The notes: generated by a model not told the origin, from the sequence alone. A stretch of DNA of 64,000 nt from Botryllus schlosseri (GCA_051294905.1 CM119371.1:39372001-39436000); one strand, 5' to 3'; counted from the first letter of the stretch, positions 4,820-56,454 are shown. Numbers and translations: made by a program.

Positions 4820-4827
4820 GGTACTAT

Positions 4828-4858
4828 CATAGCCTTTATAAGTCTTATAAAGGCTATG
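4828..4858. repeat. 31-bp perfect palindrome flanked by a 7-bp direct repeat
   Basis: catagcctttataag-t-cttataaaggctatg, with gtactat at 4821-4827 and 4859-4865. Confidence 0.85.
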
Positions 4859-13800: not shown

Positions 13801-13909
13801 GACATTACGGATGGTCCCCACACATTTCCAGATGGTGACCCCTCAATTTCTGCACGCAAGGGGATAAAAATGCACATTAACAAACTAAATTAAACATAAT
13901 ATATCTGAC

Positions 13910-15304
13910 CTTTGTAAAGATCGTTTTGTGATTTGGAGAAGACGACGCCTGCCACGAATCGTCGCACAACGGACCATCGTTCTTCGTGGAGATGTTCTTC
14001 ATCGAAGCGAGAGAACTCGTTGAGATTCATTTCTGTTATGAAAATCGCTGCCAGATATTCTTGAAGGCTTTGATGACAGAAAAACAATGTGAAATTTCCT
14101 TCCATCAAATGTCGGCTTAGTAGGTTGTTCCCCGGGACTTTAGTCATCAAATCTTGGACTTCATCTGCCGAAATTCCAAATTCCTTCAAGTCCGCCTCTT
14201 TGAACACGACCCGTCCTTCTCTCATGCCTCGAAATGCCAATGACTTCAGTTTGTTGACGATCGATAAGATTTGTTCCCGATTTCGAATGTTTTCGACGCT
14301 TTGTAGAGATGATATGATCCTGGTGTATAATTCTGTCACCGTTGTTGGAGGAGGTTTATCTGGATCCCTTCCCATCACAACTGCCGTAAGAATCAGAAAA
14401 ACGGGCACAGAGATTAAATTGATCAATCTTGGTGACATAGTCTCAATTTTCTGCCAGAGGTCCTCACCATTCTCTTGGAGTAAAAATGCAAATAACCTAT
14501 GCGCGTCATCATACGTAAGGCCATTCAGCGTGATGATGGTTTCGGGTCGCGCCATCGCCGGTAACTCTGAAACCTTGAACTCGCGCGAAGCTATGTAGAC
14601 ATTAACGTGACGCAGGATATTCCGGGATAAAATGTTGTACATGACTGTGCTGCAGCTTGCTTTTTCGTGCTTTTTCATTTTACGTGGATTTTTCTCAAAA
14701 TCCCACCTTGCTTGATCAAGTCCGTCAAATATGAGGAGTGCATCGGATTGATGTTGATCCAGCCATTTGAATGCCTGATCCTCTTCAAATTCACTTTCGA
14801 AGAGCCCTCCAAATAAAAATTTTGATGGTTTAATATCGCCCTTCACTGCAACGTCTTTCAATTCAATATAATGGACCATTCTTTTACCGAAAGGGGGCAG
14901 ATCCTCAACATGCTTAACTTTTGGAGATGTATCGAGAGCTCGTCGAGCTATTCTGCGTGTAAGTGTGGATTTTCCCGATCCTGCAGATGCCACAATAGCG
15001 GTTATACCAACTGTTACTGATGAGCCTGATTTTTTCTTTTGCCACATGGATGCCATAACGTCCTCGATCCCGATATCTTTCGCTTCAATCGTGTCCTTCC
15101 GAAGAAATCCAACTTCCTGTGTCAGCTGATTATGGCCATAGCGACCTTTGTAATAATCATCAACGTCAATTTGACGCATCTGTGGGTTTACTTCAAAGTC
15201 AGGTTGCTGAAGCGTTTCGTGTCGAAAATCATTAAGGATATCAACGGCCGTCAAATTCACGGTATTTTCGTTGCAAATTTGTAATAGCTTTTCGTTACTG
15301 ATAT
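13910..15304 (-). CDS. NACHT NTPase exon of an NLR-like (NACHT-LRR) gene
   Basis: ORF 13890..15386 has Walker A (IVASAGSGKSTL), Walker B (LLIFDGLDQ), the winged-helix motif FCHQSLQEYLAA and RWSVVRRFVAG. Acceptor tatttttcag|AT at 15304 and donor AAAG|gtcaga at 13910 are both phase 1. Confidence 0.93.
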
Positions 15305-20702: not shown

Positions 20703-23700
20703 GGCTATGGACCCCAGGTTAAGATCCCACAATGCATCTCGTATCCTTAATGTGGTGCTTCCTACCATGGCGGGGATGCGGACACCTGGTTAAGAACCCC
20801 TGAAATAGAAGTGACTAATCGCTAAAGAATCCATAGGTCTTACAGCGGTGAAACAATATCACCACCTTACTCGTCAGCGATAATAACATGGACAAAGAGA
20901 ACAAACAACACCAAAGATGTCACCAAATATGTGTCACGGGGGCCATACAGTGCCCATGGTTTCCACACATACTTGATGGACAACGCAAGCTATGTATGGG
21001 CTTTTGATATATAACTATATTCCCCAAGACAGTTTCATAGATTGTTACGTCCGCAGGATTACCAAGTCTCTATACAGAGACGCAAGTCCTTCTCTGATTT
21101 TAGCGCTTGACCCGACTCAACTCGAGCCATTTTAGCTTATTATCACCCAGTCAATCTAAAACAGTGTAATTTGACGAAAGGTCGCACCAAACAAATTCAT
21201 AATTTTTAAGCACGAATCATCAACGGGTCATGTTTCATCATCATGAACCTGAAATGTGACGTAACATGCAACGCATGGCAGATTTTAGAAGTGATGTCAT
21301 AGTGAAGTGGGCACTTCAATATTGTCGATTACTTTAATTTCCCAAATGCTTTCGCTCGCCGCACAAAATGTTCCCGCGGGCCGCGTGTTTGAGACCCTTT
21401 AACTAGACCAGTGGTCGGGAACCTATGGCTCGCGAGTCATATATGGCTCTTTTGGGTATAAGATATGGCTCTTTGCCAAATATTTTTTTTGCGGAATTGA
21501 TCGATATAGTAGAAAATTTTCATCACGATCAAACTAATTATTGCCGTGGCAGTGTAGACATGTCTTCGAGAGGTAAAGGCAATGCCGTCTTCCGGGTTAG
21601 GGGTTCGAACTCTTTTGAAAATCCTCAAATTTAAGTCACTGTCTCGTCGGCGACCAATATCACTTGCGAGTTCGATGTAGCTTACCAGACACGAAATCTT
21701 GAATAGCGCGATACATTGGTTTATCAAAGAGAATAGCAGACATGGCGACACCAATATGACGATGCAGTTTTCAAATACACATTGTCTTCCTGATCTACGG
21801 CGCGAAATGAACTGCCGTGAACGTGACATTTACAATAACTAGCTCGAATTACAAATGACGCCATAGCTATCCGCGTTCTTGATTGGCAAGTAGCTCTACC
21901 GGCGATTAAATAGGCGTCTAGGCGTGTAGCGCAACGTTAGATGAACCACCGAATACTTTGAGAATCGAGAAGTCGATCAGTATTTAGATCTTCGGAATCA
22001 ATGGCGAGGCTTGACCCGTACGTGTCTTACCTTCCGTTTCGCACTTTATTTTCGAACAATAAAATGCGAATTGTGGTAATTTGGGAGAAGAATGTTAAAA
22101 ATCTAGTCATTCATGAACATCAATAGAAAATACCAATAATAATTGAAGGTTTCCAAATTTTCGTCAACAGCTTACAGTGCGTAGGCCAGGCCTATATAGA
22201 TTACTGTAGTGACCAATGACCATGTTTGGCTGCACCTACTCATGTGATCATATGTACTCGAGTATGTACTCGATTTTGCCCAGCCCTAGATATACATAAC
22301 CATTTTCCGTAATAACTTCGATAAGCTGCTAGATCAGTGGTTCCCAAACGATGGGGAATTCTCCCCTGGGGGGGGGAATTCAATGGTTTCTGGTGGGGAA
22401 TAGACGCATTTGTTCAAAATTATATACAGGACAGTCTACATATTCACGGAGACGTATGCGCAATTACCGTTACCAGTTAACTGCTTTGGAGTGTATGTAT
22501 CGAAAATTATATTGCGTGTTGTTCACAAAACCTCATTTTTAACTCTGGACGGCCAATCATGGCGCCACAAACTCATCCAGCACGACTAGTTTGACGTGAA
22601 ATACCGCTTTTGGGAAATTTTGACCGTTACTGGATCGTTTTATGCTGCAGTTATAGACGATTGTCTTGCGTACTGGTGTGGTTGGGTGTCTTGTGTAGTC
22701 AAACCAGCAGATATCAGCTCTGTGATGAAAAAAGTTTTGGGTAGGCTAGTGAGGAACAGGACATTAACTGCCGCACCCCAAACCCAACAATTGAGGGGGC
22801 GAGCTCCTAGGGGCCAAAAATTATTTCATGAATTAGCATAAATTAGAGAGTATTTTTTTTAAATTTGTGCCACTTTTTCAAAAAATTTCGCGCTGGGGGC
22901 CCGGTTTAATATTGCCGAATATATTGATTATTGGGTATACCCTTCCACCACGAAAATACGTAGATTTTATAGAAATGGAGACTACGGCGTCGGCCATTAC
23001 CGCGCCTCGATGCACCAAGGCATATGAAGTTATAGGCCATGTAACATGCGCCTCCGAGAAGTGTGGTAACCGAAAACTTCGATATATATACAATATACAT
23101 ATATTTTAATTGTCCATGGGCGACTAAATGGATGGCGCTGAATGTTCCTGTCCTGACGATCTGAACCCCTAAGGACAAATGCCATCCCGCTGGGAAAAAT
23201 TATTTGCCAGTAAAGCAATACCAATATGAAATCGTGTGTGGCTTTTAGTTTTGGCGATTTCCATATTATGTGACATAGCAGATATAGGAGGTCACGAAAT
23301 AACATGATGCAACGAAGTCAATATAGCAACGGGTGCGCCCGAAAAGATGTTTAATACTTATTTAGGGGTCTTACATTTTCCAACACACCTCACTCAGGAG
23401 GTTCTGGGGGGATTTATTTGGTTTATCACCCTGTGGGGGACCCAAGACCAACGTTTTTTTCGGGAGGGGAGGGGGTAACGAAGTGCTGTTACGGTCTTGG
23501 CGGGGAATGAAGGCTCGGAATAAATCTGAAGTGGAGAATGAAGACAAAAAGGTTGGGAATCACTGTGCAGAAATGCAGTTGCGGAATTCGCTTTGAAATA
23601 ATAAAAGTCAACCCAATTTCTTGACATGAACATTGAATAGTATATGATCTTATTTTCATTTTTGTTGCGGTATATCACTAAGCCTACAGATATCATTTGT

Positions 23701-24696
23701 GCAAGACAGATGACGATTGCACGATATTTGAGCTAAATTTGAACTAAAACTTCGTGGGGGTCCGCGGGGTCCGTGACGGTCCGTAAGGGGTCAGTGAAGT
23801 GAGTCAGTGAGAACCACTGATTTAGGAAGTCATCGAATGATGCTTTCAACCAAGCAATAAGATTGATATCGTTGTGTGATGTAAAATAATCTAGCAGGCC
23901 GGGTCAATCTTGATTTCATAGGTTATTGTATCATGAAAACCAAATCCGTGGGATTGGGGTGTTGGCTACTCTTGTATAACTTGTAAATGGGGTAATAACA
24001 TTAAGTAAAAAAAACGTTTTGCAATCTGCTCAATATCACCGTAGCAATACTCAGGCGCGAAATACATTGTCGGGTCTTGCCTAGACCGATAGGGTGTTCG
24101 GATATCTATCCCCTTGCAAGTCCTCGTCGAAATGGTTAGCAAAGCGACGGAAAATATTGATTTTAGGGGAATATTAATTAAATTTGATTACCCCAATTGG
24201 TACATTAAACGACGGTTAAAACGTCTATATGTCCTTCAGCATTATGGCAATATGTGGCCAGAGTAGTTGCTAGATATCGTGTGCATTAGTATCGGCTATC
24301 ACGTCACTGAAATGTAGGGTAGGAATTAGCAATACGACGTCACGTCACGTCATGAGGTTCCTGCTCGCGCTCACACGGAACCTTTCAAAAAGGTTTGCGT
24401 TCACATGAACCTGAACCTTTCAGGGGTTCACACCATCCCTTAAGTATTCCCTGTGAAAGAATATTTAGTTCGTATTGGGACTTGTCTGTTGTAAAAATAT
24501 ATTCTCCTAGTCAATAGTTCAGATCGGTGTTTTTCAGACCATTTCACACAATCCCCCCTGGCAACGAACCAGGTATCAACGCCCCGTAACCCGCGAAACG
24601 ATCGTTACCATATCCTTACTTTGGGACTAGATTTGATATAAACAAATCCCTTGAAACGCAGTGAACATTGAAACTACAACAGCATGCATATCTCAC

Positions 24697-24840
24697 CTTT
24701 GCTTGGTGCCGAATGATCCTCAACTATGACGTGATGATGGTGTTGAATAATCTGGTTCCCAGCTACAGCATTTACAAAGCTATTTTCGAATGTTTGAGCG
24801 ACATTTTTTCCCTCGCCTAGTTTTGCAGAATTTGCAGAAC
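24697..24840 (-). CDS. Putative upstream NLR exon (144 nt, phase 1-1) carrying a RHIM/amyloid-like motif, copy 2
   Basis: Acceptor atcttcacag|GT and donor AAAG|gtgaga. Encodes SANSAKLGEGKNVAQTFENSFVNAVAGNQIIQHHHHVIVEDHSAPSK and splices in frame to the NACHT exon (K-D-ISNEK). Confidence 0.65.
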
Positions 24841-24962
24841 CTGTGAAGATTTGACGTGTGAAATCGCGTAGACTGTTCGGATGATAAATAAAATATGCTA
24901 TCTCTTTATTCAGTCTTTCCGATGCTTTCTCATAATGCCTAAAATCTCTCTTCAATCTAGTG

Positions 24963-26517
24963 CAGTGGTTCCCAACCTTTTTCATCTCGTGCCTCCCTTG
25001 GCCGAAATTTGAGCCAAAATTCCCCCCTTAGGAGAAATCTGCCCGATGATTAAAAAAGGTCATTTTTAACCGAGCAATCGCCTGTTGACCGAAGAATGAG
25101 ACGGGCGGTACAGAGTGTTTGTTTCTAGCAGTGCTGTAACAACACTTTGTAGACCTCCAAAAACAATGGTCTTGGTCCCAATCAAACAAATTCTGGAAGG
25201 CTTGACTCAACAGACCCCATATTTCCATTCGTGTTTTCGGCTTATCATGCACTAATCGCTAATATAACAGCTGTGAAAAATCAGTATGCATAAATTTACT
25301 GGTCTCGCGATTTTTTTCTCAAGTTTGCGTATGCATTTGGCCAATAATATTGGTACTTTCATATATAGCAGGATTGAACACACTCGAATCGAACTCGAGT
25401 CAGCATTTTCTGATGTCTCGACTTGACTCGAGTCATAGTTTCAAAATAGGGAAACGACTCGACTCGACTAGAGACAATTTGTTTATTGACTCGACTTGGA
25501 GTTATTGTACATGACTCGAACCAAGTCATATGACTCGTGACTATAAGACGGCCAAGACCGATATTTCATTGTAATTTCGCAGAACAGTAAAGTGACCTTC
25601 CTATTGGAATTTCGTCTATTGGTCCTGGTACTTGAAAATGCGACAATAAACTGCTCAAAGTGAAGAAAATTAGTATATTATAAATCAAAATCATTCAATA
25701 TTACCAAAGAGAGTTATAAAAAGTGAGTCTGACAAGACTTCAACTGGAAATTGAGCAGTCAACACAATGACTTGGACTTGGACTCGAGTCATAATACCAT
25801 GATCTGACTCGACCCCATGCTCGGTGACTTGGACCGTCGGACTTGACTCAATAGTGAATTGAAAATGACTCGACTTGATTCGAGTCAAAACTATTAAAGT
25901 GAGATTGACTTGTGACTCGGAGCCTCGTGACTTGGTTACAGCCCTGATATATACCCTGATATACGACATACACGTGATCAGATTTCCTGCTTGAGCTCAT
26001 TGAAATTTAGGACACTCATTCTGTTTCGGCAACATTGTACCAAGTTTAACATGCATTTTTTCGATCGAGTAGAGGTTAGCGATCTCTTTGACTTGAGTCG
26101 ATGGCGTTGGAATATTTTGTCACTTTATGAAAATGTTGACTTGAAAATATAAGATAAATACTTTCGTTAGAGGCCTTGTTGTGTTAGATTCGGCAGGACA
26201 TTTGCTCGCTTAGAATATATTTGATTGAGAGGCCGTCTCTGGCCTACAAAATTGTCTTGCGAACTGCAGCACATCTGAACTAGTTTTTAAAAAACAAGGA
26301 CCTTGTATGTGAGAAAGAGATTTCAAATAGCAGTTGAATATACTTTCAGCAAAAAAACAGCTATGAGGAGCATACGTTCTGATATAACTGGTTGACTACA
26401 TGACAGTTCGGACATGAACAATTTGGGAAATCCGTTACAATTCTAAAGTGGAATTCCTCCCTAAAAATTGCAAAATTCCCCCCAAGGGGGGAATTCCTCC
26501 CCGGTTGGGAAACACTG
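24963..26517. mobile_element. hAT-like MITE with nested GACTC-repeat MITE (25369-25946)
   Basis: cagtggttcccaacc / ggttgggaaacactg; TSD atctagtg. The inner element has TSD atatatag/atatatac. Confidence 0.85.
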
Positions 26518-26541
26518 ATCTAGTGCATCATTTCACATACC

Positions 26542-27463
26542 CAGTGTTGGGGTAACTCAAGTAATGACTTGACTCGAGTCATACTCGAGTGAACATTTTT
26601 GTATGACCTGACTTGACTGGAGTCACTTGCAAAAATGTCTTGACTTGACTCGGCGCTTCAAAAATGTCAATTGATTCGTGACTCGCCGCAGAATTTGCGA
26701 GTCAATTCCATGTCATCCGGTATACGGTGTTGATTCGGATTGTTTGCGATACGCACTTGTGAGGGCAACCAGTCATTTACTCATTTTGAATTGACCGCAA
26801 ACGAAACGATCTCTGCTTCCGTTGTCGTCGTCGTAGTAGTAGATTAATCTAACAGTAACGCATCTTTGTTTCGTAGACGGCCCAATGCTTACATTACGCA
26901 GTACTTACCTCTACCAAACATATTGTATAATTTAAATGGAACGAACATAGTTTATGCGTTTATATTATCGCAGATTTGTAGATGGGAAGTGTAGGCAACT
27001 GTACCATATCAATTTGTTTCGACGCCTCAATGCTTCGTATTCGATCCTCTATTTTGATTGACAATAACAGACCATAGCATGTAGCTATACGCACCACTTA
27101 CCCACGTATTTCATCACCAGTTCTAAGTGTACGTGAGCGATACAACCCATATTTGCATGTATATTTAACTTTATATTTGGTATTTGATTCAACATGTCCA
27201 ATTAATCTGCCAGTCCCCAAGTCAGCAAAATGTAATGCATCATCACTCATGCTTCGAGAATGCAATTTCACTCAAATCGAGACTTGACTCGTGACTTGAC
27301 TTGTCTTGACTCGACTGGACTCGAGTGATCTCCAAAAATGAGTGACTTGACTTGACTCGAATCACCTTCGAAAATCGATTCACTTGACTTGACTCGAGGC
27401 AAAATGTGGGATGACTCGAGATGACTCGTGACTCGAAAGTAGTGAGACTTGATCCGAACACGG
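26542..27463. mobile_element. hAT-like MITE with GACTC/GACTT subterminal arrays
   Basis: cagtgttggg / ccgaacacgg; TSD cacatacc at 26534-26541 and 27464-27471. Confidence 0.8.
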
Positions 27464-28912
27464 CACATACCTCAAACGAATTTGTAGTGTCTATCACATA
27501 AATTCATAACCTATCAATTCAACCGCATTGCAAAATCTTTGAATAAAAAATTTATTGGCCTGAATTGTTAATGCTCCCATACGATGAAACTTGGATTTTA
27601 AGTATTTATCATCTTGAAAACGGAAATATTGTTTCAAACAGGCAATGAATCTGTATTAGGAAACATGCTGATGATATATGTGTCGACGACTTGGTACAGA
27701 AACTGGCGTAGTCAATAATCCACAGCTGCAACATCATTGGATTGTGTGAAGATAATCGTGCATGTCGAATATTTGAGCGCTAGATTCGTATTTTATATAG
27801 CCTATATTATATTTAAAAAAAATTCTGACACTTCAGCAACTGCGCTTTCTGTTAATACGAAATGAGGTAATTTTATTTCTGATGCAAAGTGAAGCCAATA
27901 TATACTGTGACATATACTCCAATCGCACGGAAGGACAAACAACACTCGACCGGTGTTTTTATATCGCATAGAAATACGACGTAGTATATGACCGAGCTTA
28001 TGTCATGTAATGCAATATATCTAGGGAAGTCCAGATGGCATGTGATGGATCACTTAAGATCAACTAGGTTAATTAAATTCGCGATGGAGTACATGATTAC
28101 TGAAAATCCGTAATCTCATATCTGTAACTCAAACTCTGTGAAATGGTCGCAGGTCTGATAAACGTCTGTATATTCCAGGAAACTAACATCCCGGCGTCAT
28201 TACTCGAAATTGACAATAATTTGATGTGCATAGGCTTAGCGAATATTGATTCACATTCTTTGATTTAAAGATGGGATGCAGCTTGATCTTTTAGTGCATG
28301 AATGTTCAGTTTAAAGCCTAATCATGCTGAACCTGTTCATACACAGGGGCGTGTTCGTTGCGGGATTTACGCCTGCATGTTAATCTGTTGAGGTGGATAC
28401 AGCTAACTGATTGACAATCGACCAAAATAACCAGAAGTATGATCAGTAACCGAGCACTTTTATTTTTCTGAGTACTCGAGTAGGCTTCATCTATTTTCTG
28501 AATTGTTATGTTTTCAGATGATCTCAATTTCTACATACAAGTTTTTGACGCAGAATTACTTAATTATCACCCTATGACTTTCACGAACTAGAAAGTAATT
28601 GGTCTCTGTCAGTTTAGTTAGTCCAATAATCAAATCAATTAGTCTAGATTACACCTCTGTGATGGTTGTTAGAGTATTATTTCGAAAAAAAACTCTCCGA
28701 TTTGCATAGTCATCAGTCGTTTTTGGTTGCCGCGAAGATGCAACTTGCAATTTCGAGAGTAGCTCACCCCACTTGAATTGGGTTTACGATGTCTTATAAA
28801 TATTACCATGTACTACTTTAAATATTTCAAGTTTTTACTCCAACCTTGACGTGAGTGCAACAGCTGAAGCCGATGTCGACCTATGAACGAAAAGATTGAT
28901 AGCGATGCCTAC

Positions 28913-28996
28913 CTTTATCATTTTCTAATGCAGACATTTCACTTTTGTCTCCTCGAATATTCTTCAATGAATCGTTGCTTTGCGTTTGCCAGACGA
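28913..28996 (-). CDS. Putative 84-nt phase 1-1 linker exon of the NLR gene
   Basis: Acceptor cattttgtaacag|TC and donor AAAG|gtaggc. Open frame VWQTQSNDSLKNIRGDKSEMSALENDK, phase-compatible with neighbouring exons. Confidence 0.45.
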
Positions 28997-30199
28997 CTGT
29001 TACAAAATGATTCGATATGGAGCTGAAAATATTCTGTCTCGCACGGAAACTAAATGATGATTGGCACGAGAAACAGTGATGTAACATTCTATTTTCGCTA
29101 ATGGAATTTCCGTACTGCCCTGGGGCTAACAATCTCTAAAATAATACCCCCCTCTGAGGACGATTTTGTTAAGGAGACGAAAAAGTGCCGACTTTTACGA
29201 CAAGCAAAACCACACGAGCCAGTGGATACAGCCTATATGGAAACTACGGAAATGTAAAGCAATAACTTTGCAGATGATGTCTTGCGTCAGCTATAATTCA
29301 GGCGATTGGGAGCGGTGGAAGTAAACGTGGGCGGTATGGACTATGGGAAACTGTTTGAGAAAATCCGTAAATAAATGTTCTTCTTTGTGCACTCAAGTCA
29401 GATTTATGAATATGTGTTCACGTCGTTGGTGGTCGTACGTGTACGGTGTATTCAATCGAAAATCTCTAACAATGCTATTAAGGTTTTGTAACGAACCAAA
29501 CAATTTTTCAAACAACAAATAGTTTAATTATTCTGTGAGACTTGCGATCAGAACGAAGTACGATAATTTGGAAGAGAGTGTTTTCGAGTATTGAATAAAT
29601 TTAGAATTTGGCTTTGTGCAATATGTAAATCTTTTTGTAATACTGATACAAACGAAGATAGAACTTGACCATTATTTTTATCATTTTAACTACCATAATA
29701 ATTTTTCAAAAAGCTTAGGATCACATCTCCTAATTCTTCCGCAATGGTTGGCTTTCATAAGCGGAGATTGGTTCACCGAGTAATTGAATACATGATATCT
29801 CCAATACTCTCATATGGAATAAAGGCCAACCGAATAATAGTGAATATGCCCTCACTATTGGTTTGCGTCATTTTGATGCTGATTCGTTAGTAGACGGGTT
29901 AAATGCTATAATGTCGTGGTATGAACATTTCTTAGCAACTTTCCCATCTTTGTTGAAGTTCCGTAGAAGTCCCTTTTATCGATTGCAAAACGAGGAGAGT
30001 GCAACGATTGCATTTCACACTAAATCATATTAAATCATCAGAGTCTTGGAGTCTTGGGTGTTCAGTTGGACAAATAAATTTACTAACTGATAAACATATC
30101 TTGTCACAGCTTGTGTAGACATCGTAAACAGGGGTATGTTAGATCAATTAACTGACTTCCGACGCAAGCACAAGGAATTTATTAGGGTATGGTGTGAAC

Positions 30200-32950
30200 C
30201 AGACATGGGGTAATCGCGATTAGTAATCGTAATCGATTACGACGATTACAGCATTTTCAAGTAATCGTAATCGCAATCGATTACATTCGAGAAAATTCCG
30301 AAGTAATCGTAATCGTAATCGACTACTTCCCATATTTAATCGATTTCTTTGCAAAAGAACGATTACTTTTTATTTGAACAGGACTATGAGATAAACTGAA
30401 CATTCGTGAACAAGGAAAAGGTATTATACCAGTTAGTGATAGCACAAACGTCAGATTTTCAAATGCCAATGCTCATTATTACGTCAGAAAGGGACCATTA
30501 GCTTTGCTCGTCATTGCGTAAGAAGTATCCAGCTATCCATACATAGTGAATAGATATTCGATGTACATGTACATTTGTGTGATTGTAAGAACACTCACCG
30601 TACTGCATATCAGGTTATCAATACATTCCAGACGCCACTACCTCGCAGCAGGATAATTAACCACCACTCTGCCTAGTTTCAAATAGTAGCTTTTGTATTG
30701 ATGTTTGGTTATGCTTAGTTAAACGCGGTTTGACCGTTGCTGCTTGGCGAGCAGTAGGCCTATGTAGTACGAACGTACACCGGACAAAGGTTTGAAATTT
30801 TGTAGCCTACTCGTCAAATAAAACATTACGGTTTCCACGACGAAGCATTAAAATCAACAGCTGCTGATATATATCATAACCGAGCTGGTTCTCGTAATGG
30901 CCGCTTGCATTACATTATCTGTATTAAGTTGTAGGCAGAATTTTATGTTTACTTTCTCTTATTCTCATATGATTCTACTTGAAACGGGCGCTAATCGTTA
31001 TTTCACAATTCTTTACTCAACATTTGGGCCTGCCGCCATAGCCATCGGCTTATATACAATGTTAGCGTGGCAGGACAAACACAGCAAATCGTCCTCCACT
31101 CCAAACTTTGCTCTTGGGTCCCCATAGGGTAGTAAATTTTCAAGTTGAAGATTTAATTTCGTCAATAATATTGGTAATTTCATTATATTACTATTCATTT
31201 TTAATCCTCTCTCAGCCCCCGATGGTCTCTCTTTAGTGATTTTATTTCAAAGTGCATGATAAAGCATAATAACCAAAAGTAAGAAAAGAAGAAATATAGT
31301 GCGTGCCTATGTGAATCCTGGATGGCTGGACTTAAGATCTCAAGTCTTATACGCCTGCACCATTCTTTTTATATTTAAATGGTCCTTGGGTTTATAGTCT
31401 TTAGGGTGTTATTGGAGCGTGACGAAAATTGAACTCATATTTTCAGTCATATTTATATCTCAATAATTTTCCATGTTCTGGGTTTGTCCATTTTTAGAAA
31501 TTTGCCAATCATCGTAATTATGATATTTTCAATATTTATGTTCCCAATTACCTACCTTACATTTTAGTTTATGGTGACCCTGGTAATTTTCTCATTTCCA
31601 GGATGACGATATCTCCTATTGGGTGGTTTTGGTAGGGTGTGGTGTTGGTGGAGCCGCTGTTGGGGTATATGGGATGTGATATTTCCGGGGAGGAGTATTG
31701 GGGGGTAGTAAAACACACGAAATGGCAGTTTTATTTGCATATGGAAAAGGAAAAAAGGCGTAAAAATAAATATTCATATTGGTACATGTATATGGAATGA
31801 CTATACAATATGCATTGCATATATACGCGGGAAATTTGAGATATGCATGTAGTCATATTTCAGGATATTAACTAAATTTTGCGATCGCGTGTAAAACGGT
31901 TATTTGCGTCGCCTTTAGGCTTATCGCGTGTTGCCCAATTTCTTCGATATGCTGTTGGTTATGGCCCGTATTCGGTCACCCGTCTATGGTCAGACTTACT
32001 TGAAGAGCTGGAGGCACGTAATTCATAATTATAAAATCTTGTATCTTGTAATAATTAGTTACTTTGGGGTGTGTTGTTAATTGGTGACCTCCGGTCTGTT
32101 GTATAATCAAAAGATATTGTTGTGGCCCAAACGTAGCAGACTAAAAATACGTGCGTGAGACGCACACACTAATTGCCATGTCTTTAATGCTCTGTGGGTG
32201 CCCGGGTGGCATTTGCATTGTGGGCTCAGATTGGAAGGACCGGACTATTAGTCTATTACTATTACTATTACTATTATTGACAATGGACACATACCCCAAG
32301 TTTCGGCCTATGTCTTTCATTAGTAGCACACTTCGTGGATTCGCATGTTGGCCGAAACTGCAGATGTGTTTTGGTGTGACGTGGCGCGGTATTAACTGGC
32401 ACCTAAATGCCTATTACTACAAATTATGCATGCTTTTTTTCTTGGCGTATGTATTTCAAAATCAAGCTATCTAGTTGAGACATTTAAATCGCGATGCTCG
32501 TAGATAATTTTCAAGTTCATGAAATCTCTCGCAAATAGTCTATAATTTGTGTTGGTTTACGAAATACTTTTGAGTCCCCTTCGAGCTCGCTCCTCACCTT
32601 ATTAGGAAATTTGGGGTGCGACGGTTGTGGACCTGGCAAGAATGCAAATCGTTGGGTGCGATAAATCGTCCTCTATAAAATAGGCAATGGGTACTTTATG
32701 ACATAACAAGCAATTATCGCGTCTTTTTTTAAAGCAATCAGCGCAATCCATATATTGTCTTCCAATGTAACTTCTAAGATGCAAAATAAATGTAATCGTG
32801 AGTAATCGTGATTACTTTTACAATGTAATCGTAATCGTAATCGACTACTTCCTGATTTTGCTGTAATCGTAATCGTAATCGTAATCGCGTCATTCAGAAG
32901 TAATCGTAATCTCAATCGATTACATTCACGAAGTAATCACCCCATGTCTG
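30200..32950. mobile_element. 2.75-kb hAT-like element with (GTAATC)n subterminal arrays, inserted into the TIR of another MITE (about 30183-33514)
   Basis: cagacatgggg / ccccatgtctg; TSD gtgtgaac at 30192-30199 and 32951-32958. Confidence 0.85.
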
Positions 32951-33560
32951 GTGTGAACGTGAGGTTCAAGTTCGCGTTCTCTGTGTAACCTCAGAAATTT
33001 AGAGTTTCACGTTCGCAAACGAACCTTTCTAAGTTCTGCACTGTCTACCTTTCTCATAAATTACAATTTTGACTTCATTATAACATCTTTGGTTGAAATT
33101 TATTGCATTTCAACTGCGGGCCACTATATGCATGGTGCTGTCACTCCTGGCAGCATAAAAATCAACACTAGTAAACAGGCATGCACCTTGGTAATCCGAA
33201 ATTTTTATTTGTTCAGTTACAGAAGTTTGATCGAATAATGAGTGACTCTTTGCTGTAAGATTGCCATGCAATCACACAACATCAAGAACGGAATACACTA
33301 CAAGTATGACTAGTCAGCGAATGATGCTTATTCAACCAATCAATAATATTTGTGTAGAGATCTCATCGATGTGTGCTAAATATCAACATAGCAATACTCA
33401 GACGCCGATTACATTGTCAGGTTGGCATAGACCGTCAAAGAAGATTATTATATCTTTTGATTGCCCCAGTTGATACATTCGGCGACGTTTAAAACGACGT
33501 TCGTACCATCCCTAGTATATTTATTGGATTACTGGCGATGAGTAGAGATACGGTGTAGTT

Positions 33561-35123
33561 CAGGGGTCACCAACACGCGGGCCGCATGCGGCCCGCGAGG
33601 TCATATTTTGCGACCCGCGACCTGATTTTGAGAAATTTTGGTGTAACGCTTACTAAAGCATTTTGAAATGCTGATTGATTGAATTAAGTTTGAACATATT
33701 GTTGTTGGTGTTCACAGTAAGCCATTCTACTGTGCCCAATGTCACTATTCCTCGCAATCTGATACGGTTTCGGCATGGTAATATCATTCCATTGAGGAAG
33801 AATTTGCTGATATGAATGGGCATATTGCCTTGACGTGCAATGGCCCACCATTGCGGAGACTGGGGCACTTGAAAAACGATTTCAGGCTCTCCAAAAGACC
33901 ATGCTTTACGAGGAGATAGTTTTCCAGCTAGTAGCGCTACCGTGTCTAGCTAACCCCAATATCGATACTTTAATCCAGGGGTGGCCAATCTCCGGCATTA
34001 AGGAAAAGTACGCGGCCGTCGACACTTAATTCAATTAGGATGTGTTGGCGGCCGTCAATATGCAAATTGAACTTGCGAATTGACTCCCATATTAATGAAA
34101 GGTTTGAGCGATTCTTGAAATTTTCTTCGCGCTACGCGCAGTTTAATGCGTGTTAACTTTCGATTTTAATATAGTAGTGTCCTTTGTAATTTGAGTCCCA
34201 CAGTACAGATGCAAATAGCTGAGGAATGTGATGCATGCTCCCCATAATGAAATATAGTTTTTATTCGTGTTCTCCTCATCATGAATGAAATTTTTTCGGG
34301 TAGGCCTGCATTTAGGCGAATCAAATATAGGCTATATTTCCACTATACCGACAAATCTCATGGGAGGCCAAGAAATAACTGCATGCAACAAAGGGGAGTA
34401 ATAAGAATTGGCACACCCAAAGATGCAGCACAGCATTAATAACTTTCATAAGTTCTCCAATACATCCCCAGCATCAACTCTACCGGTGAATCTGATCACA
34501 TGGGCCGAGAAAGGATAAATATTTGATAGTAATATGTGTCAAACTTATGCTAATAATTATTGACAAAATTCACAAATGAAAATGAAAAAATTTTCGCGCT
34601 TGGCGCGACTACAGAACTAATCCCTATGGCTCTTCATAACATTACTACTCACAATTTCGGTGCGCATAGTAAACCGATATGAGTAAATAGATTACTCCGG
34701 AGTATACCGGCAATGGACATGGACAATTTAACGTGGGTATTTGGCCCCAGTTTGTTCATTATGCGGCCGCAAGCTACATGAGTAATCGAAATGCGGCCGT
34801 GAATAGCAAAAAGGTTGGTCACCCCTGTTATAGTTGCTACAGAGTGTTGTCAGGTATCGTGCGCAGCTCATAGTTCCAAATAGAATGAAATTGATGATCG
34901 TGAATTTTTTGTTGCATTTGCGTTTGCACAATAAAATATTATTTCTTTCGTGGTGACTATGCCCGTCGCCCATGTCAGAGAGCACAGAATTGTACTAACG
35001 CAGAGTTATGAAACGCGGTTGTTTGCGTTGCCCATTTGAATCTTGATATTGAAGTCTTGCGGCCCGCGGCCTCCGGGAATTTTGAAAAGTGGCCCGCGAC
35101 CCATTTTGAGTTGGCGACCCCTG
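33561..35123. mobile_element. hAT-like MITE with nested element (33976-34827)
   Basis: caggggtcaccaac / gttggcgacccctg; TSD gtgtagtt. Confidence 0.85.
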
Positions 35124-35978
35124 GTGTAGTTGATAATTATGCCAGACACACGAACGGGTGACTTTACGCTATTGTTATCATCCAACATTGTGTACATTTA
35201 GCAGAAGCTAGATAATATACCATTGTGTATTGCATCATGCTCGGACAAGATCACGCATTTGTCAGATTAGGCGACCCGTCGCCGCTGTTTTGGCTACTTC
35301 TTCTCAATATTGGAAACTTTCTATTTTAGGTTAAAGCTTCTGCATCCTTTTGCAGTCACATGCATCCTCCATTCGTTTCTGCACATCATGCTGCCAGGTT
35401 TTATATTGAAATGCCGGAATGGAAGGTTGTGGGGAATTTACGGTCTTGCGAATCCATTGGAAGCCTTTGACGGAAAATTCATGGGGGATTTGTAAACACT
35501 GTAACATGATTTCCTTCTTAACATTCCGTTCTGCTATATGTTATAGTTAAATTGTGAATCTAACCACATTATTTTTTCACACCGCAATTCACACAATATA
35601 TTCACGGCCAAATCGTCAAAAAGTGAATAACTAAGGCCTCGAGTTTGTCAACGGCCATACTTTTAATCGCGTGCTTAAACGCCACATTTTGAGTTCGACT
35701 CCACCCTTACATTGTCCCCAAATACCATAGCCCGCCAAATACAACTCGAAATAACACTGAGAGAGCAATAAACATGATGGTCAAATACGACGTGCGCTAC
35801 TTGAAAATATTGCACGCTACTAGGTTTGTCCACGTAGGGTACCAAAGTTTCAGAAACACTGCCTTACATGAAAAACATCAGCATGAATCTTGGTTTGTTG
35901 GAGTACTGATAAGCGAAAAACGAGATTTTCCACGAACTTCACGCGTTATCTCTACGGTTATCCTATACATGCGTTGAT

Positions 35979-36747
35979 GAGAGAGAGAGAGAGAGAGTCT
36001 TTATTTTCATCGAACCAAAATACATAACAAACGGCAGTGATGGTGGTACAAAAAATATGCGTGCACAGTATTCGGTATTAGATAGGAATGATCGATAAGA
36101 CCGTGAAGGTCATCTAGTCCGATCACACCAGCATCAAACAGGTACACTTGACTCAGAACAGTCTGGCTGTACAAAAATGTTTAGTTAGGAAACGAAAATA
36201 GAAAACAATTAAACAATGGTAGCAAATGATCAATGAAGCAATGTCTGGGCGAGGTAGGGCAACAGTGTTAGTGTAACGACAAGAGGTGATCAAGTAGGGC
36301 TTTTTTGAATCTATTATAAGGCAATTCACGGATATGTGATGGTAGTGCATTCTAGATGATAGGTCCCGAGTAGTCGATAGATCTCTTAGTTAGGTTGCTA
36401 TTGGGTTGGGGTAAGTAGACGTTTCCTTTAGACGAAGATCTCGTGTAATGGGAATGGACATGTTTAGCAGGTATGAAAAAGTCATCAAACACAGGAGGGA
36501 GACTATTGGAAAAATATTTGTGAACAACTTTTGATACTTCGAAGCGATACAGTACATCAACTCGCAAAATTCGATGCTTACGGTAGTAAGGCGATAAATT
36601 GGTACGTAAAGGTACAGATGAGATCAGCCGTATCGCACGGTTTGTTCGAATTCTGCACAAAAATGTTGTACATGCATTTCCCCATACTACTATTCCATAT
36701 TGCAGATGCGAGTGGAAAAGAGAGAAGTAGATGGTTCGTAGTACTGA
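35979..36747 (-). mobile_element. Second, shorter and frameshifted copy of LINE family A
   Basis: Nearly identical to 40909-41681, including the (GA)n tail, with small deletions. Confidence 0.88.
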
Positions 36748-37172
36748 GACTCACTGCTGCTAATCCATGCATCACCCCTGTATTCTTCTTATAATTTGCT
36801 CGGTATCTATTGTTACTTGTTGGGACTTAGGGCGGAGATAATAAAGTTCGCGGATCCGGGCGAATGCTAATCCTATGATTAAATACTTCTAATCGCGACG
36901 AGTAAAGTTGGAAAAGGTTACGCACGATGGTTGGTCGAGGTGTCCCGAGTTTTCAATCAAGTGGCGTTATCTGTTGCATCATAATGCGAAAACGCGTTAT
37001 AGGCTGGAAAGTGTAGATTTGTTGAATGAAACAGCAGCCTGCTGAAAATTATACTGCCACTGTAATAGGTAGAATTATCATCACCGCGAAATGAAAGTCG
37101 TGTCCAATTTGTACGGTACAGCTAAGAAACGGATTATAGAATATTGATATCGCTCTGCAATAGCGTGTACAA

Positions 37173-37792
37173 TAGGGCTGTTCAAAAATAACCTTTTTTC
37201 CTTAATCTTGCGGGTTACTTGATTAAATCGTTAGGTTGCCTTAAAAAATGACGCACACCGAATTTGAATTCATTCCAACCAATATTCGCGGATTTCGTAG
37301 AGTTTGAAAATTTTGAATTTGCCTAAAAATGAAAAAAAAAAATTTTTTCAAATTTTTCTGCCAACCCCATGAAATTGTTGCGCTGTCTTCAAAAACGATG
37401 CAAAACAAATTTGACTCAATTCGAAGCTGCAGAAGCCGAGTTATTCAAGTTTTTTGATGATAATTCTGGGATGATCCACCAATCAAGGATAATCCCAGAA
37501 TTATCAAAGAAAAACTGAAATAACTCCACTTCTACGGCTTCGAATTGAGTCAAATTTGTTTTGCATCGTTTTTGAAGACAGCGCAACAATTTCATGGGGT
37601 TGGCAGAAAAATTTGAAATTTTTTTTTTTTTTTCATTTTTAGGCAAATTCAAAATTTTCAAACTCTACGAAATCCGCGAATATTGGTTGGAATGAATTCA
37701 AATTTGGTGTGCGTCATTTTTTAAGGCAACCTAACGATTTAATCAAGTAACCCGCAAGATTCAGGAAAAAAGGTTATTTTTGAACAGCCCTA
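37173..37792. mobile_element. Fold-back (almost fully palindromic) MITE
   Basis: tagggctgttcaaaaataacc... arms are near-perfect reverse complements for about 250 bp; TSD gtgtacaa. A diverged half-copy lies at about 45452-45775. Confidence 0.9.
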
Positions 37793-38099
37793 GTGTACAA
37801 TGTACATACTTCGTTGATTGTTTAGTGAAGACATTACCTAGGAACAATCGGCACGGTCATTATCGGGAATAATTGTGCGTAGGACTGATTAGCAGTGTAC
37901 GCAGTTTTTATAGTTATTTATCCATAGTTTGTTCCGGCTTGCTAAATTATGAGATTAACACTGACATTTCTGCGCTGCGATCAACTGGTTTCCTTAATCC
38001 TGGGTTGATAAATTCGGACGACCGCGATAATCGACTTCATTGTTAATCCAACTTTATTATCTCCGATCTTCGAGTTGAATAAACGGTCACTACACAAAC

Positions 38100-38264
38100 C
38101 TTCGTGTACGTCACTGGCTTCTCCTTCCGTGCTGAGTATATCGCGAACAGCTTTGTTTTGGAGGATCTGATCTCCACACACGACGTTGACAATGCTCTTT
38201 ATGAAACTTTGATTCACATTGTCACCTTCAGCCAACGTTGCGGCTCCTAGTACATACGTGATTG
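38100..38264 (-). CDS. Putative upstream NLR exon (165 nt, phase 1-1) carrying a RHIM/amyloid-like motif, copy 1
   Basis: Acceptor cacataacag|CA at 38264 (in-frame alternative tag| at 38246) and donor GAAG|gtttgt at 38100. Encodes LAEGDNVNQSFIKSIVNVVCGDQILQ, which is 15/26 identical to the 24.8-kb exon motif. Confidence 0.6.
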
Positions 38265-38773
38265 CTGTTATGTGCGCAAGGATATGGAAGATAGCATAAT
38301 AACAAAATACGGTATAATGAAAACCTTTTCATCTCTTATTGGCCAATATTTAGTTATGGCTTGATTTGCATTCGAATCAATATTCAATGATTACACATTG
38401 CTAATATTAATATTGGTGGTGAGTATGCATTCCAATATGACGTGCATTACTAACCGCCTGTCTGGGCAGATATTGGTGCAGACATTGCATCGGACACAGC
38501 AGAGCTTCGATCTTGATCCTTTGCCGACATGGTATTAATCATGTGATACTAAATTACTAGCGTGTGATACAATACTGGAAATAAACGGATATGAAATACA
38601 GAATATCATGAATCTGTTCAACAGTTCGAGACGAAGAGTTCCGGTGCGTTGCACGAGTATATGATCCAATTCCTTGGCTAAAATCAGTTATATTCCAGTC
38701 CACGCCGCAGCAAGTTACACGCTAAATATACAATGAGTCGAATGGCAAAACACATTGATCTCAGTGAGATATA

Positions 38774-40908: not shown

Positions 40909-43034
40909 TGAGAGAGAGAGAGAGTCTTTATTTTCATCGAACCAAAATACATAACAAACGGCAGTGATGGTGGTACAGAAAATATGCGTGCACAGTATTC
41001 GGTATTAGATAGGAATGATCGATAAGACCATGAAGGTCATCTAGTCTGATCACACCAGCATCAAACAGGTACACTTGACTCAGAACAGTCTGGCTGTAAG
41101 AAATGTTTAGTTAGGAAAGGAAAATAGAAAAAAAAATTAAACAATGGTAGCAAATGATCAATGAAGCAATGTCTGGGCGAGGTAGGGCAACAGTGTTAGT
41201 GTAACGACAAGAGGTGATCAAGTAGGGCTTTTTTGAATCTATTATAAGGCAATTCACGGATATGTGATGGTAATGCATTCCAGATGATAGGTCCCGAGTA
41301 GTCGATAGATCTCTTAGTTAGGTTGCTATTGGGTTGGGGTAAGTAGACGTTTCCTTTAGACGAAGATCTCGTGTAATGGGAATGGACATGTTTAGCAGGT
41401 ATGAAAAAGTCATCAAACACAGGGGGCAGACTATTGGAAAAATACTTGTGAACAACTTTTGATACTTCGAAGCGATACAGTTCATCAACTCGCAAAATTC
41501 GATGCTTACGGTAGTAAGGCGATAAATTGGTACGTAAAGGTACAGATGATATCAGCCGTATCGCACGGTTTTGCAGGGTTCGAATTCTGCACAAAAATGT
41601 TGTACATGCATTTCCCCATACTACGATTCCATACTGCAGATGCGAGTGGAAAAGAGAGAAGTAGATGGTTCGTAGTACTGATCTGGAAACCAAAGATTGG
41701 AGACGGGTCATTATTCCCACACACCGAGCTAGTTTTGATATTGTGCATTCAATATGCTGCTTCCAAGACAATTTCGAATCAATGGTGACGCCGAGATATT
41801 TTGCTGAGTCACATATTGAGATTTGTTTATGATTGATGTTCACAGTGAAATTATGACTGGCATTATTTAAAACGAGCATCTCGGTCTTATCTGCATTCAA
41901 ACTTAGTTTGTTTGCTTGCAGCCATCTCGACACTTTTGGGAGTTCCCTATTCACAGATGCATGCAGATCATCGAAAGTGTTGGAGGTTATGAAGAGGTGA
42001 GTATCATCAGCAAATAGCGTTGTGCGGAATAAAGATGCATTAACAATGTCGTTAATATAAATGAGGAAAAAAGTCGGTCCAAGGACTGAGCCTTGTGGCA
42101 CTCCACAAGTTATATCTCTGGTAGTCGTTCCTAATGTCCCCAGTTTAACAAATTGTTTGCGGTTTGCCAGGTAGCTTTCAAGTAGAGTTGCTGCAATACC
42201 CCTGATTCCATAGTGTTCTAGCTTGTATCTTAAGATTCTGTGGTTAACTGTGTCGAAAGCTTTGCGGAGATCGATAAAAATGCTGCAGCCACTTTCTTTT
42301 TGCTTGATGGTTTTGTAATAGTCCGTTACAATTGATAGTATTGCATGGTTGGTGTTGTGGTTGGATCTGAATCCATGCTGAGTCGGAGACAGTACTGCAT
42401 TCAATTCAAAAAAGTTCTTAAGTCGGCAGTCAATCAGTTTCTCAAAAACCGTGGCAAGATTTGGCAAAACAGATATTGGTCGGTAGTTAGAAATTAGCTT
42501 TTTACAGCCTTTCTTAAACACTGGCATTACTCTGGCAGTTTTCAGTGCATCTGGGAAAATGCCTAGACGTATCGACTCATTAAAGAAAATGCATATAACA
42601 TCACCAATAATATTAAAGACTAGCTTCAGAAAGTGAGTTGGGATGAGATCGGGTCCTACTGCTTTGTTACTTTTCATTTCAGATAATACGATCGCAACTT
42701 CTCCTTTACTTGTCGGCTCAAGAAAAATGGATTTCTGAGGGCCAGGACTCAGGTACGAGAGAAAGTCATCGGAGGAGTTTGGTATTGAAGCTGCAAGATC
42801 CGGACCAATGTTGCAAAAATACCGATTGAACTTTTCTGCTACTGCAAGCTGGTCTTTGATGACGCTGCCATTCTCGAGTAGCTGGATGTCATCAGTACTC
42901 TTGGGAGCATTACCTTTAGTTAGGTTGATAATTTCTCCAATGGTTTTCCATGTGTTCTTGGGATCTTTGGAGCACTCTTCGAATCTTTTTTGGAAGTATG
43001 CTTTTTTGGCATTTTCTTTCATATGCGTCACTGT
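40909..43034 (-). mobile_element. 5'-truncated non-LTR retrotransposon (CR1/L2-group LINE), family A, with (TC)n 3' tail
   Basis: Contains the RT ORF and a 3' UTR ending in a GA microsatellite at 40909-40925. A near-identical shorter copy lies at 35979-36747. Confidence 0.9.
41196..43031 (-). CDS. LINE ORF2 reverse transcriptase domain (611 aa open; APE endonuclease missing through 5' truncation)
   Basis: Motifs NYRPISVL, QHGFR, IDLRKAFDTVNH, GVPQGSVLGP, LFADDT and YLGVTID. Confidence 0.92.
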   Translation of the reverse strand: MTHMKENAKKAYFQKRFEECSKDPKNTWKTIGEIINLTKGNAPKSTDDIQLLENGSVIKDQLAVAEKFNRYFCNIGPDLAASIPNSSDDFLSYLSPGPQKSIFLEPTSKGEVAIVLSEMKSNKAVGPDLIPTHFLKLVFNIIGDVICIFFNESIRLGIFPDALKTARVMPVFKKGCKKLISNYRPISVLPNLATVFEKLIDCRLKNFFELNAVLSPTQHGFRSNHNTNHAILSIVTDYYKTIKQKESGCSIFIDLRKAFDTVNHRILRYKLEHYGIRGIAATLLESYLANRKQFVKLGTLGTTTRDITCGVPQGSVLGPTFFLIYINDIVNASLFRTTLFADDTHLFITSNTFDDLHASVNRELPKVSRWLQANKLSLNADKTEMLVLNNASHNFTVNINHKQISICDSAKYLGVTIDSKLSWKQHIECTISKLARCVGIMTRLQSLVSRSVLRTIYFSLFHSHLQYGIVVWGNACTTFLCRIRTLQNRAIRLISSVPLRTNLSPYYRKHRILRVDELYRFEVSKVVHKYFSNSLPPVFDDFFIPAKHVHSHYTRSSSKGNVYLPQPNSNLTKRSIDYSGPIIWNALPSHIRELPYNRFKKALLDHLLSLH

Positions 43035-43706
43035 GTGATCTTAAACAGGCAGATAGCCGCTAGTCGTAAATGATGCTACTATGATTCCTACGTACAATTG
43101 CACGACGTCATATGGATTGACGGACTATATTTTGAGTTTCGTCTGAACCTACTGTCCGAGACTGCAGTGACCAACATCGGTATTTGTAACGCTTCGCCTA
43201 AAGCAAATAAACTTACGTTCTCGGCTCATTACACTGAACTATTTGAAAAATAAAACAAAATGTTAGCAATAACTTTCAACATCTTCGTCTGAATCTCATA
43301 CGAGGATAACTTGAACTGCAATTATTACTATGTCGGCATCGCGAAAAATATCCAGAGCTCACAGCCCATTATTATTTTCCCTCCTTTATTCTTGGACACT
43401 CTAACGCGCAGTTGGGAAATTATGTTACTTCGTTTTTCCCTCCGTGTGGAAGGAATATTGAGCGCGCCATATCTAAGATGTCCTCGTTTATTTTTTCAGA
43501 CAACACGAAAATACCAGGATCGGAAAAAAAATCGAACAACACTTTCTTCGCATATCAAAATTTCGGAAATGAAATAAATTGTTTAGGGTGAATTCATTCC
43601 ACGCGTCAACCTCAAGGCATTAACAATTGTTATGTGCAGTTCTATATACAAATTTGTCGAGCAGTGATACCATCACCGCTACAAATGTTTGTTATGAGAT
43701 GATTGG

Positions 43707-56376: not shown

Positions 56377-56454
56377 TGCAGCTTGCTATAATGTCAATGT
56401 ATATTCTATATACTATTACGAAGACTCTGAGTAGAGCAAGACAATAACGTAGAC

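Follow-up and report, generated by a model that had tools for sequence, protein, structure and literature searches.

The NOD-like receptors (NLRs) NOD1 and NOD2 recruit the kinase RIPK2 by homotypic CARD-CARD interaction and the kinase is then activated by induced proximity. Kinases of the kinase-KEN family, to which IRE1 and RNase L belong, are activated by oligomerisation. The core tetrad of the RHIM is [IV]-Q-[IV]-G. Kajava et al. (2014; PMC4262963) described, in the part of their paper available here, a RHIM-NACHT protein (BF82280) and other RHIM immune proteins of Branchiostoma (amphioxus), so that an animal NLR with a short amyloid-type motif at its amino terminus is not a new idea; the same part states that tunicates appear to be devoid of RHIMs. 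Amyloid motifs associated with fungal and bacterial NLRs (NWD2/HET-S HRAM, sigma, PP and BASS) are presented in the accessible extracts of PMC5485727, PMC9815663, bioRxiv 2020.01.06.895854 and PMC12261475. A 2024 survey (PMC11508797), as far as its available text goes, reports ascidian NLRs without an N-terminal effector domain. As ascidian NLRs are reported without effector domain and tunicates without RHIMs, the route by which these expanded NLR repertoires signal is in question. Here we analyse a stretch of 64,000 nucleotides of the ascidian Botryllus schlosseri (GCA_051294905.1 CM119371.1:39372001-39436000; hereafter the window, with positions counted from its first letter) that carries an NLR gene with two related exons, each coding for a copy of the same short motif, upstream of its NACHT exon. 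An ascidian source fits with one weak cellulose-synthase match (26.3 bits, E 3.8e-4). Since the same motif also heads kinase genes elsewhere in the genome, it is probably, to judge from its sequence context, the link that couples receptor to kinase.

The features of the predicted gene, all on the minus strand, are the following (a slash marks the exon boundary at splice sites).

38455..38530, minus strand: exon 1, with its ATG at 38530-38528 and 25 codons plus 1 nt coding MSAKDQDRSSAVSDAMSAPISAQTG; donor GGCG/gttagt, phase 1.
38100..38246, minus strand: motif exon B, 147 nt, phase 1-1; peptide (G)AATLAEGDNVNQSFIKSIVNVVCGDQILQNKAVRDILSTEGEASDVHE(G); acceptor tactag/GA, donor GAAG/gtttgt.
28913..28996, minus strand: candidate middle exon, 84 nt, phase 1-1, frame open; probably not an exon.
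24697..24840, minus strand: motif exon A, 144 nt, phase 1-1; peptide SANSAKLGEGKNVAQTFENSFVNAVAGNQIIQHHHHVIVEDHSAPSK; acceptor cacag/GT, donor AAAG/gtgaga.
13890..15304, minus strand: NACHT exon, acceptor tttcag/AT at 15304, phase 1; the lower bound is the stop of the open frame.

The open frame at 13890-15392 matches Pfam NACHT (6.1e-16) and NOD2_WH (9.2e-7) and codes for a NACHT NTPase with a winged helix, in agreement with the assignment to an animal NLR made in the original prediction, an earlier reading of this DNA. Its best NACHT relative (P0003, 1079 aa) is 32% identical. A faint likeness of the P0003 amino terminus to the motif was seen by eye, but it scores -4.6 bits against the motif profile and P0003 was rejected as a motif carrier. 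The NLR family to which the gene belongs is lineage-specific and very large, with more than 200 NACHT exons. Exons B, A and NACHT are all in phase 1, so that the junctions B to A, A to NACHT and B to NACHT are all in frame; the isoforms with 0, 1 or 2 motifs put forward in the original prediction are possible products. The GT-AG sites and phases put forward earlier thus stand, while the upper bound then given, 38264, overshoots the acceptor of exon B (38246) by 17-18 nt.

Exon 1, separated from exon B by a 208-nt intron, codes for a leader of 25 residues that is acidic and rich in Ser. By position as well as sequence it is a homolog of a family first exon (MAEGGxDHNSGVADVMPTSLSPGTSG). At 16 paralog loci tblastn detects this first exon (E<0.1), where it precedes the motif exon by 200-300 nt. 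The ATG, its common ACCATG context and the donor are all conserved in the alignment of exon 1 with these paralogs. The paralog at C1:3.844 Mb (C1 and similar names denote contigs of the assembly), for example, has an ATG exon MAEGGQDHDSGVAEEMPASLSPQAR with donor AGGG/gtaagt in phase 1, and its motif exon follows ~150 nt further on. The presence of exon 1 at 208 nt 5' of exon B brings both motif exons into one gene model. A tblastn search with the family first exon gave no homolog within 1.5 kb of the A-type exons. From exon 1 beside B and none near A-type exons follows the predicted order of exon 1, B, A and NACHT, and all of its junctions are in phase 1. Exon B is, by its sequence, the canonical motif exon of the family and exon A an extra internal one.

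The middle exon at 28996-28913 had been proposed to lie between the two motif exons. RNA was sampled over 18350-38349 in three 2026 bulk RNA-seq runs (~6% of each) and one contig set. Depth is zero at 28355-29688, hence over the candidate exon in all four RNA runs, and coverage elsewhere is repeat-derived, 92-98% of the reads continuing into unlike sequence. The corresponding stretch of a paralog (L003) is 64.5% identical over 200 nt versus ~80% around the real exons. Because of the lack of reads and of the poor conservation, 28996-28913 was dropped from the gene model. The earlier statement that the window has no death-fold or TIR exon holds at the level tested: none of 101 minus-strand open reading frames (ORFs) of at least 62 aa between 15.4 and 64 kb matches such a domain. 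Three further ORFs of the scan set are a reverse transcriptase, a Mutator-like element (MULE)-like ORF and one without match.

The peptides of exons A and B read exactly as first quoted, with 15 of 26 residues identical over that stretch, and BLASTP of the pair gives 16/30 (E 3e-10). At the DNA level, blastn with word size 7 over 5.5 kb around each exon detects only chance matches of up to 22 nt. The absence of alignable DNA between the two regions indicates an old duplication that was kept at the peptide level alone. The likeness goes beyond chance: at least 160 loci make up the family of which both exons are part, and these loci agree in acceptor position, phase and donor type.

This family was delimited by tblastn in the 495-Mb genome from which the window comes. 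The queries were exon A (72 matches), exon B (149) and a copy close to the consensus (121), and their matches merge into 160 unique loci; a fourth query added approximately four more, by eye. The consensus of 35 copies is SATLAEGENVxQxFxNSxVNVVAG[DN]QI, within a motif length of 27-30 residues, and L7, A8, G10, Q15, N23 and G27 are each conserved in at least 90% of these copies. Past the core comes a variable beta-strand-like piece (e.g. INVYNIT, KVINCIT) and then a tail rich in S/T/E/A/P. Every copy read has an AG two bases before the first motif codon, with variable upstream "residues", and the exons end in phase 1, mostly at G/GTGAG or G/GTAAG. The motif is a modular exon, in phase 1 at both ends, and its position is the one taken in other NLRs by a CARD, PYD or death domain.

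B-type paralogs at C1:40137939, C1:40787727 and C1:30708963 are 74-80% identical to exon B and keep its acceptor and donor. Copies of the A type are found elsewhere only at C1:40134170 and C1:40778766 (72-74% identical). At both loci a B-type exon precedes the A-type one by 3.6-9 kb, and at C1:40778766 only 551 nt separate the A-type exon from the NACHT exon downstream. The paralog at C1:30.70 Mb, whose NACHT is 85% identical, has a B-type exon only. Note that the A-type exons, in the window (24741-24752) and in the two paralogs, have a conserved run of four His, QHHHH, directly after the core that is absent from the other 150-plus copies.

The motif exon family is linked to NACHT exons. The search for paralogs of the NACHT exon yielded 218 candidates, of which 86 were scored and are 52-92% identical, and Pfam NACHT gave 224 candidates in the genome, of which 94 were scored; the union of the two scored lists is 122 loci. 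Both this list and the kinase list described below are lower bounds, and ~60 motif loci have no assigned downstream partner. A listed NACHT exon lies on the same strand within 30 kb downstream of 79 of the 160 motif loci, at a median distance of 7.2 kb, and within 30 kb upstream of only 3. The 10-kb downstream flanks of 20 "orphan" motif loci were read and 8 have an unlisted NACHT exon. The 79 listed exons and these 8 together identify at least 87 of the 160 motif loci as NLR 5' ends. Two motif exons within 30 kb upstream were found at 9 of the 122 NACHT loci. In one of them (L053, C2:39.495 Mb), the two motif exons are separated by a 590-nt intron and have ag/ acceptors, /gtgagt or /gtaagt donors and phase 1-1. 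The recurrence of the two-motif layout at nine NACHT loci makes it a repeated theme and no accident of the window locus.

One motif locus has a different downstream neighbour. At L042 (C8:3863217-3873216), an exon 1 of NLR type and a motif exon are followed on the same strand, 3.6-4.6 kb downstream, by NHL beta-propeller repeats (~4120-5120 in locus coordinates, up to 3.4e-25) that are spread across three frames. The arrangement may represent a motif-NHL gene, a pseudogene with frameshifts or an adjoining gene. C8:3.86-4.01 Mb holds a cluster of four motif loci.

The orphan flanks also revealed kinases. In 3 of the 20, the motif is followed on its own strand, at 3-5 kb, by a complete protein-kinase exon (Pkinase 2e-37 to 3e-43); a fourth flank (L034) has a kinase fragment. 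Across the 160 motif loci, a listed kinase exon lies within 15 kb downstream of 6 and upstream of none, so that the motif-kinase loci, with the L034 fragment, total 7. In these loci the motif exon precedes by 1-9 kb a single-exon kinase domain of IRE1/RNase-L type. All four kinase exons that were sequenced open at a phase-1 acceptor ag/GT followed by W-K/E (RFGK in L044). The terminal G of the motif donor and this GT would make a Gly codon, in frame. A non-circular profile was built from non-kinase copies only; these include L012, a copy without identified partner that resembles the kinase-linked L034 copy. At genome scale (Z = 2e7) this profile recovers the kinase-side motif exon of all 7 loci, with E 7e-12 to 6e-6 and 35.6-54.5 bits, and gives no other match among 2115 ORFs. 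The search for partner effectors with a motif profile, which had been suggested with the original prediction, has therefore turned up kinases.

The best solved relatives of the motif-kinases are IRE1 structures (E 1.2e-26) and a 37%-identical relative (P0070) carries a KEN domain. The motif-kinases are located in large clusters of single-exon kinases on C3, at ~16-17.6 Mb and 20-21.7 Mb. Loci L037 and L051 keep VAIK, HRD, DFG and APE. The frame stops directly after the kinase domain in L037 and L051, and ~15-25 codons further in L036 and L044. Neither KEN nor another Pfam domain was found in the downstream ORFs of at least 60 aa of L036, L037 and L044, nor in the short stretch of L051. A KEN domain 8 kb downstream of one motif-kinase gene was considered and rejected, as it is part of another gene, of kinase-KEN type (C3:46-48 kb), which has a kinase C-lobe of its own.

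Several observations were made on the kinases around these loci. The regions C3:16.1-17.6 Mb and 20.0-21.7 Mb are a tandem expansion of IRE1/RNase-L-like kinase domains, with dozens of copies that are 29-73% identical to L037, only a few of them with a recognisable motif exon upstream. KEN (Ribonuc_2-5A) has at least 25 matches in the genome, including long single-frame kinase-KEN genes (C16:2820050, open frame of 1198 aa). The kinase-KEN gene L052 (C3:46201-48100) lies directly downstream of a motif-kinase gene.

The motif core is under purifying selection, as estimated from codon comparisons. Over the 23-codon core of 29 copies (406 pairs), the proportion of nonsynonymous differences (pN) is 0.226 versus 0.595 for synonymous differences (pS), pN is below pS in 96% of the pairs, and the median dN/dS is 0.28 over 265 pairs. 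Conservation has a period of two: fixed and free positions alternate through V-x-Q-x-F-x-N-S-x-V, and N-V-V-A-G-[DN]-Q follows. The composition is N 14%, V 13%, A 11%, G 8%, S 8%, I 7%, Q 7%, P 0.3% and R 0.6%. AlphaFold2, run with the 35-sequence alignment, predicts zero secondary structure (mean predicted local distance difference test 65.8; predicted template modelling score 0.22). According to this model the motif is no domain on its own, which agrees with the earlier expectation that it is not part of a globular domain.

The motif shares with the RHIMs of the Branchiostoma RHIM-NACHT protein and of RIPK1, RIPK3 and ZBP1, as presented in the available part of PMC4262963, that a short non-globular motif replaces the death fold N-terminal to NACHT, that some receptors have one to three copies, and that kinases carry the motif too. 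It differs in having neither a match to the RHIM hidden Markov model (HMM) nor the [IV]Q[IV]G core, in its N-terminal position in kinases, where the RHIM is C-terminal, in kinases that are IRE1/RNase-L-like and not RIPK, and in a far larger family. The fungal and bacterial amyloid motifs, from what the extracts at hand contain, are likewise ~20-40 residues long, with a high content of N/Q/G and of beta-branched residues, lie near the NLR amino terminus before the nucleotide-binding oligomerisation domain, are repeated on a separate effector protein (here by a predicted splice) and have disordered linkers alongside. By the same extracts, the effectors there are HeLo, lipase or PNP domains where the effector here is a kinase, its genes do not adjoin those of the receptors, and the Botryllus motif follows a 25-residue leader and does not begin at residue 1-3. 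No sequence match to these motifs was found either. With NOD1/NOD2-RIPK2 it would have in common an identical homotypic module on receptor and kinase, but with 27-30 residues this module is too short for a six-helix death fold. The kinase domain is closest to IRE1 among solved structures, but the motif-kinases are without KEN in the regions scanned.

The explanation that we prefer, with a probability of about 0.5 for the whole of it, is that the motif is a lineage-specific homotypic signalling module of NLRs, common to kinases, that recruits these kinases to activated NLRs, possibly through an amyloid-like assembly. Ligand-driven oligomerisation of NACHT would cluster the N-terminal motifs, which would self-associate by stacking of beta-strands, possibly in a cross-beta amyloid-like fold. 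The receptor motifs would co-assemble with the identical motif on kinases and the kinases would fire by induced proximity, with a logic like that of NOD2-RIPK2, RIPK1-RIPK3 or fungal NWD2-HET-S. Two-motif receptors such as the product of the window gene would offer two stackable units per chain. Composition, period-2 conservation, disordered flanks, tandem copies and sharing between receptor and effector are traits by which fungal and bacterial amyloid signalling motifs, and the RHIM in animals, are defined; a cross-beta assembly would therefore be plausible, although we think it less likely than not. A more specific version, that the motif is a non-RHIM animal amyloid motif, is doubtful. In this version, NACHT would nucleate a cross-beta fold (with two rungs, HET-s-like, in two-motif receptors) that templates the motif on IRE1/RNase-L-type kinases and pseudokinases, as an independently evolved counterpart, in the chordate lineage, of fungal NWD2/HET-S, and this in a group for which neither RHIMs nor NLR effector domains are reported.

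A number of points weigh against kinase recruitment by a homotypic, possibly amyloid-like motif. No splice junction was found in the sampled RNA runs over 18350-38349, in a small sample whose reads are repeat-derived, and no full-length or annotated protein with the motif was found among 5.8 billion and 1.84 billion proteins. The latter search gave 15 matches, 12 of which are short read-through ORFs of the motif exon family on unannotated contigs. The other three were set aside as chance partial matches: P0063 and P0067, with propeller-like repeats of bacteria that contain DLDGQNVNQSF, and P0059, a 5398-aa repeat protein. The top scores of the ESM Atlas search, 0.76, are uninformative. Downstream of the NACHT exon in the window, none of 32 minus-strand ORFs of at least 55 aa matches a Pfam leucine-rich repeat (LRR). 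The ORF at 285-836 is LRR-like by eye, but BLASTP against P0003 gives E 0.36; LRR exons may be short or outside the window. On the kinase side, the motif is carried by only 7 loci of the 98 kinase matches listed, no first exon of the motif-kinases was identified, and we infer the motif-to-kinase splice from order, strand and phase only. The kinase genes are not adjacent to NLR genes, unlike the fungal and bacterial amyloid pairs: the motif-kinases are on C3 and C5, and the nearest NACHT exon listed downstream on the same strand is at a distance of megabases, where the contig has a listed one at all. L036 (5185-6072; HRD to HRN) and L044 (5783-6661; DFG to DMG) have altered catalytic motifs and are probably pseudokinases by this criterion, so that, with L037 and L051 intact, the set appears to mix active kinases and probable pseudokinases.

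Further points of this kind concern the motif itself. In recent paralogs, the identity of exon B (0.85-0.90) is no better kept than that of introns (0.84-0.93); constraint is therefore visible only at the scale of the family. The predicted coil of a 47-residue peptide is no demonstration of amyloid. None of the 35 copies matches RHIM PF12721, HET-s_218-289, Ses_B, NACHT_sigma or another amyloid-motif Pfam family at E<=10, nor do exons A and B alone match PF12721. The RHIM HMM run over the whole genome gives three matches at E 2.6-9.4, none above the cut-off and none at a motif locus. The motif profile finds in the PDB only chance hits (E>=0.48, His-tagged termini), with no RHIM, RIPK or HET-s chain among them.

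The alternative that survives best accepts the motif and has a single copy per transcript: exon A would be a duplicate that is skipped or in decay, or the two exons would exclude each other, and the two-motif protein would never be made. The B-only paralog at C1:30.70 Mb, the presence of the A type in just 3 loci, the similar exon and intron identities of recent paralogs and the lack of RNA support in the sampled runs are in its favour. Yet exon A keeps its open frame, splice sites and phase in all 3 paralogs despite ~15% nucleotide divergence, and the A type keeps all near-invariant residues except A8, which is Gly in all 3. Tandem motif exons are moreover known from 9 NACHT loci, which represent several subfamilies, and at one of these the intron between them is 590 nt long. 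We regard this alternative as less likely than not, with an appreciable chance.

A serious rival, if an unlikely one, is that the motif forms a zipper of non-amyloid type or binds to some third protein. In the latter case it would be no self-templating homotypic or amyloid module but a short element, linear or a beta-strand, for docking to a globular adaptor, or one that is autoinhibitory on the NACHT/LRR body, and NLRs and kinases would be co-recruited or co-regulated by the same partner. This fits with a short motif that has no fold of its own and low-complexity S/T/E/A/P linkers alongside, with conserved charged residues in its N-terminal half (E9; E/D/K11) that are unusual for amyloid cores, and with the lack of likeness to known amyloid motifs. 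The presence of the motif at the amino termini of both receptor and kinase and its recurrent tandem duplication are, however, hallmarks of a homotypic module, and no candidate adaptor was identified.

It is very improbable that the motif is a divergent genuine RHIM and the window gene a RHIM-NLR like the Branchiostoma protein. The pattern N-[SC]-x-[VI]-N-V-V-A-G-[DN]-Q has a loose likeness to the [IV]-Q-[IV]-G core and the motif pairs with kinases, but the tetrad itself is absent: V-V-A-G is conserved instead, and the core V-N-V-V-A-G-[DN]-Q has its Q after Gly and not before. The HMM and PDB searches above and IRE1-like rather than RIPK-like kinases point the same way. The occurrence of two motifs per protein as in ZBP1 would fit a RHIM, but tunicates appear to be without RHIMs, both according to the available part of PMC4262963. 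The RHIM-like label of the original prediction is accordingly not retained: judged by its residues the motif is not a RHIM, and it is a new family that would fill the RHIM, amyloid signalling motif or CARD role. No description of it was found in the literature on metazoan NLR amyloid signalling motifs, invertebrate RHIM/NACHT proteins or ascidian NACHT/NLR expansion. Note that the best RHIM-HMM match of the genome (C4:14839580-14839630, minus strand; E 2.6) has an internal stop and lies 24 kb upstream of a kinase exon (cluster at C4:14.60-14.81 Mb), probably by chance.

That the "exons" are non-coding, i.e. conserved intronic or transposon-derived sequence that is open by chance, is scarcely credible: the region is repeat-rich and lacks RNA support in the sampled runs, but pN is far below pS over 406 pairs, the codon phase of the AG does not change between copies although the "residues" before it do, the donors are in phase 1, exon 1, motif and NACHT always come in this order, and NACHT exons are found downstream at 79 loci versus upstream at 3.

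Other elements of the window surround or interrupt the NLR gene.

35983..36747, minus strand: 3' fragment of a LINE-type (long interspersed element) retrotransposon, in intron 2; a 97% copy of 40910-41681.
41196..43040, minus strand: LINE-type reverse-transcriptase ORF, 614 aa (RVT_1 3.6e-34), upstream of the NLR gene and not part of it.
51814-52401, plus strand: P2RX7_C-like ORF, 195 aa, a cysteine-rich region (PF20478 1e-5).
53394-56385, minus strand: THAP/MULE-like element, with a THAP ORF (7e-13) and then MULE-like transposase ORFs (5.5e-4).

The sequences 35983-36747 and 40910-41681 form a 773-bp direct repeat (97%), the 40910-41681 copy being the 3' end of the reverse-transcriptase element at 41196-43040. 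Intron 2 also holds a foldback repeat at 37166-37799 (635 bp, arms 93.5% identical), ~300 nt downstream of exon B, and contigs of run X1 join across it. The THAP/MULE-like element (53.4-56.4 kb) is a transposon or a domesticated transposase and bounds the upstream limit of the NLR gene.

The presence of the motif in more than 80 NLR genes and in a handful of kinases offers a concrete and testable answer to how ascidian NLRs may signal. It points to the receptor module and a candidate partner, and to the peptides on which co-assembly can be tried. Should this assembly turn out to be amyloid-like, NLR signalling by a templated fold would extend beyond the RHIM/PP/BASS3 lineage to a new motif family in a chordate relative.

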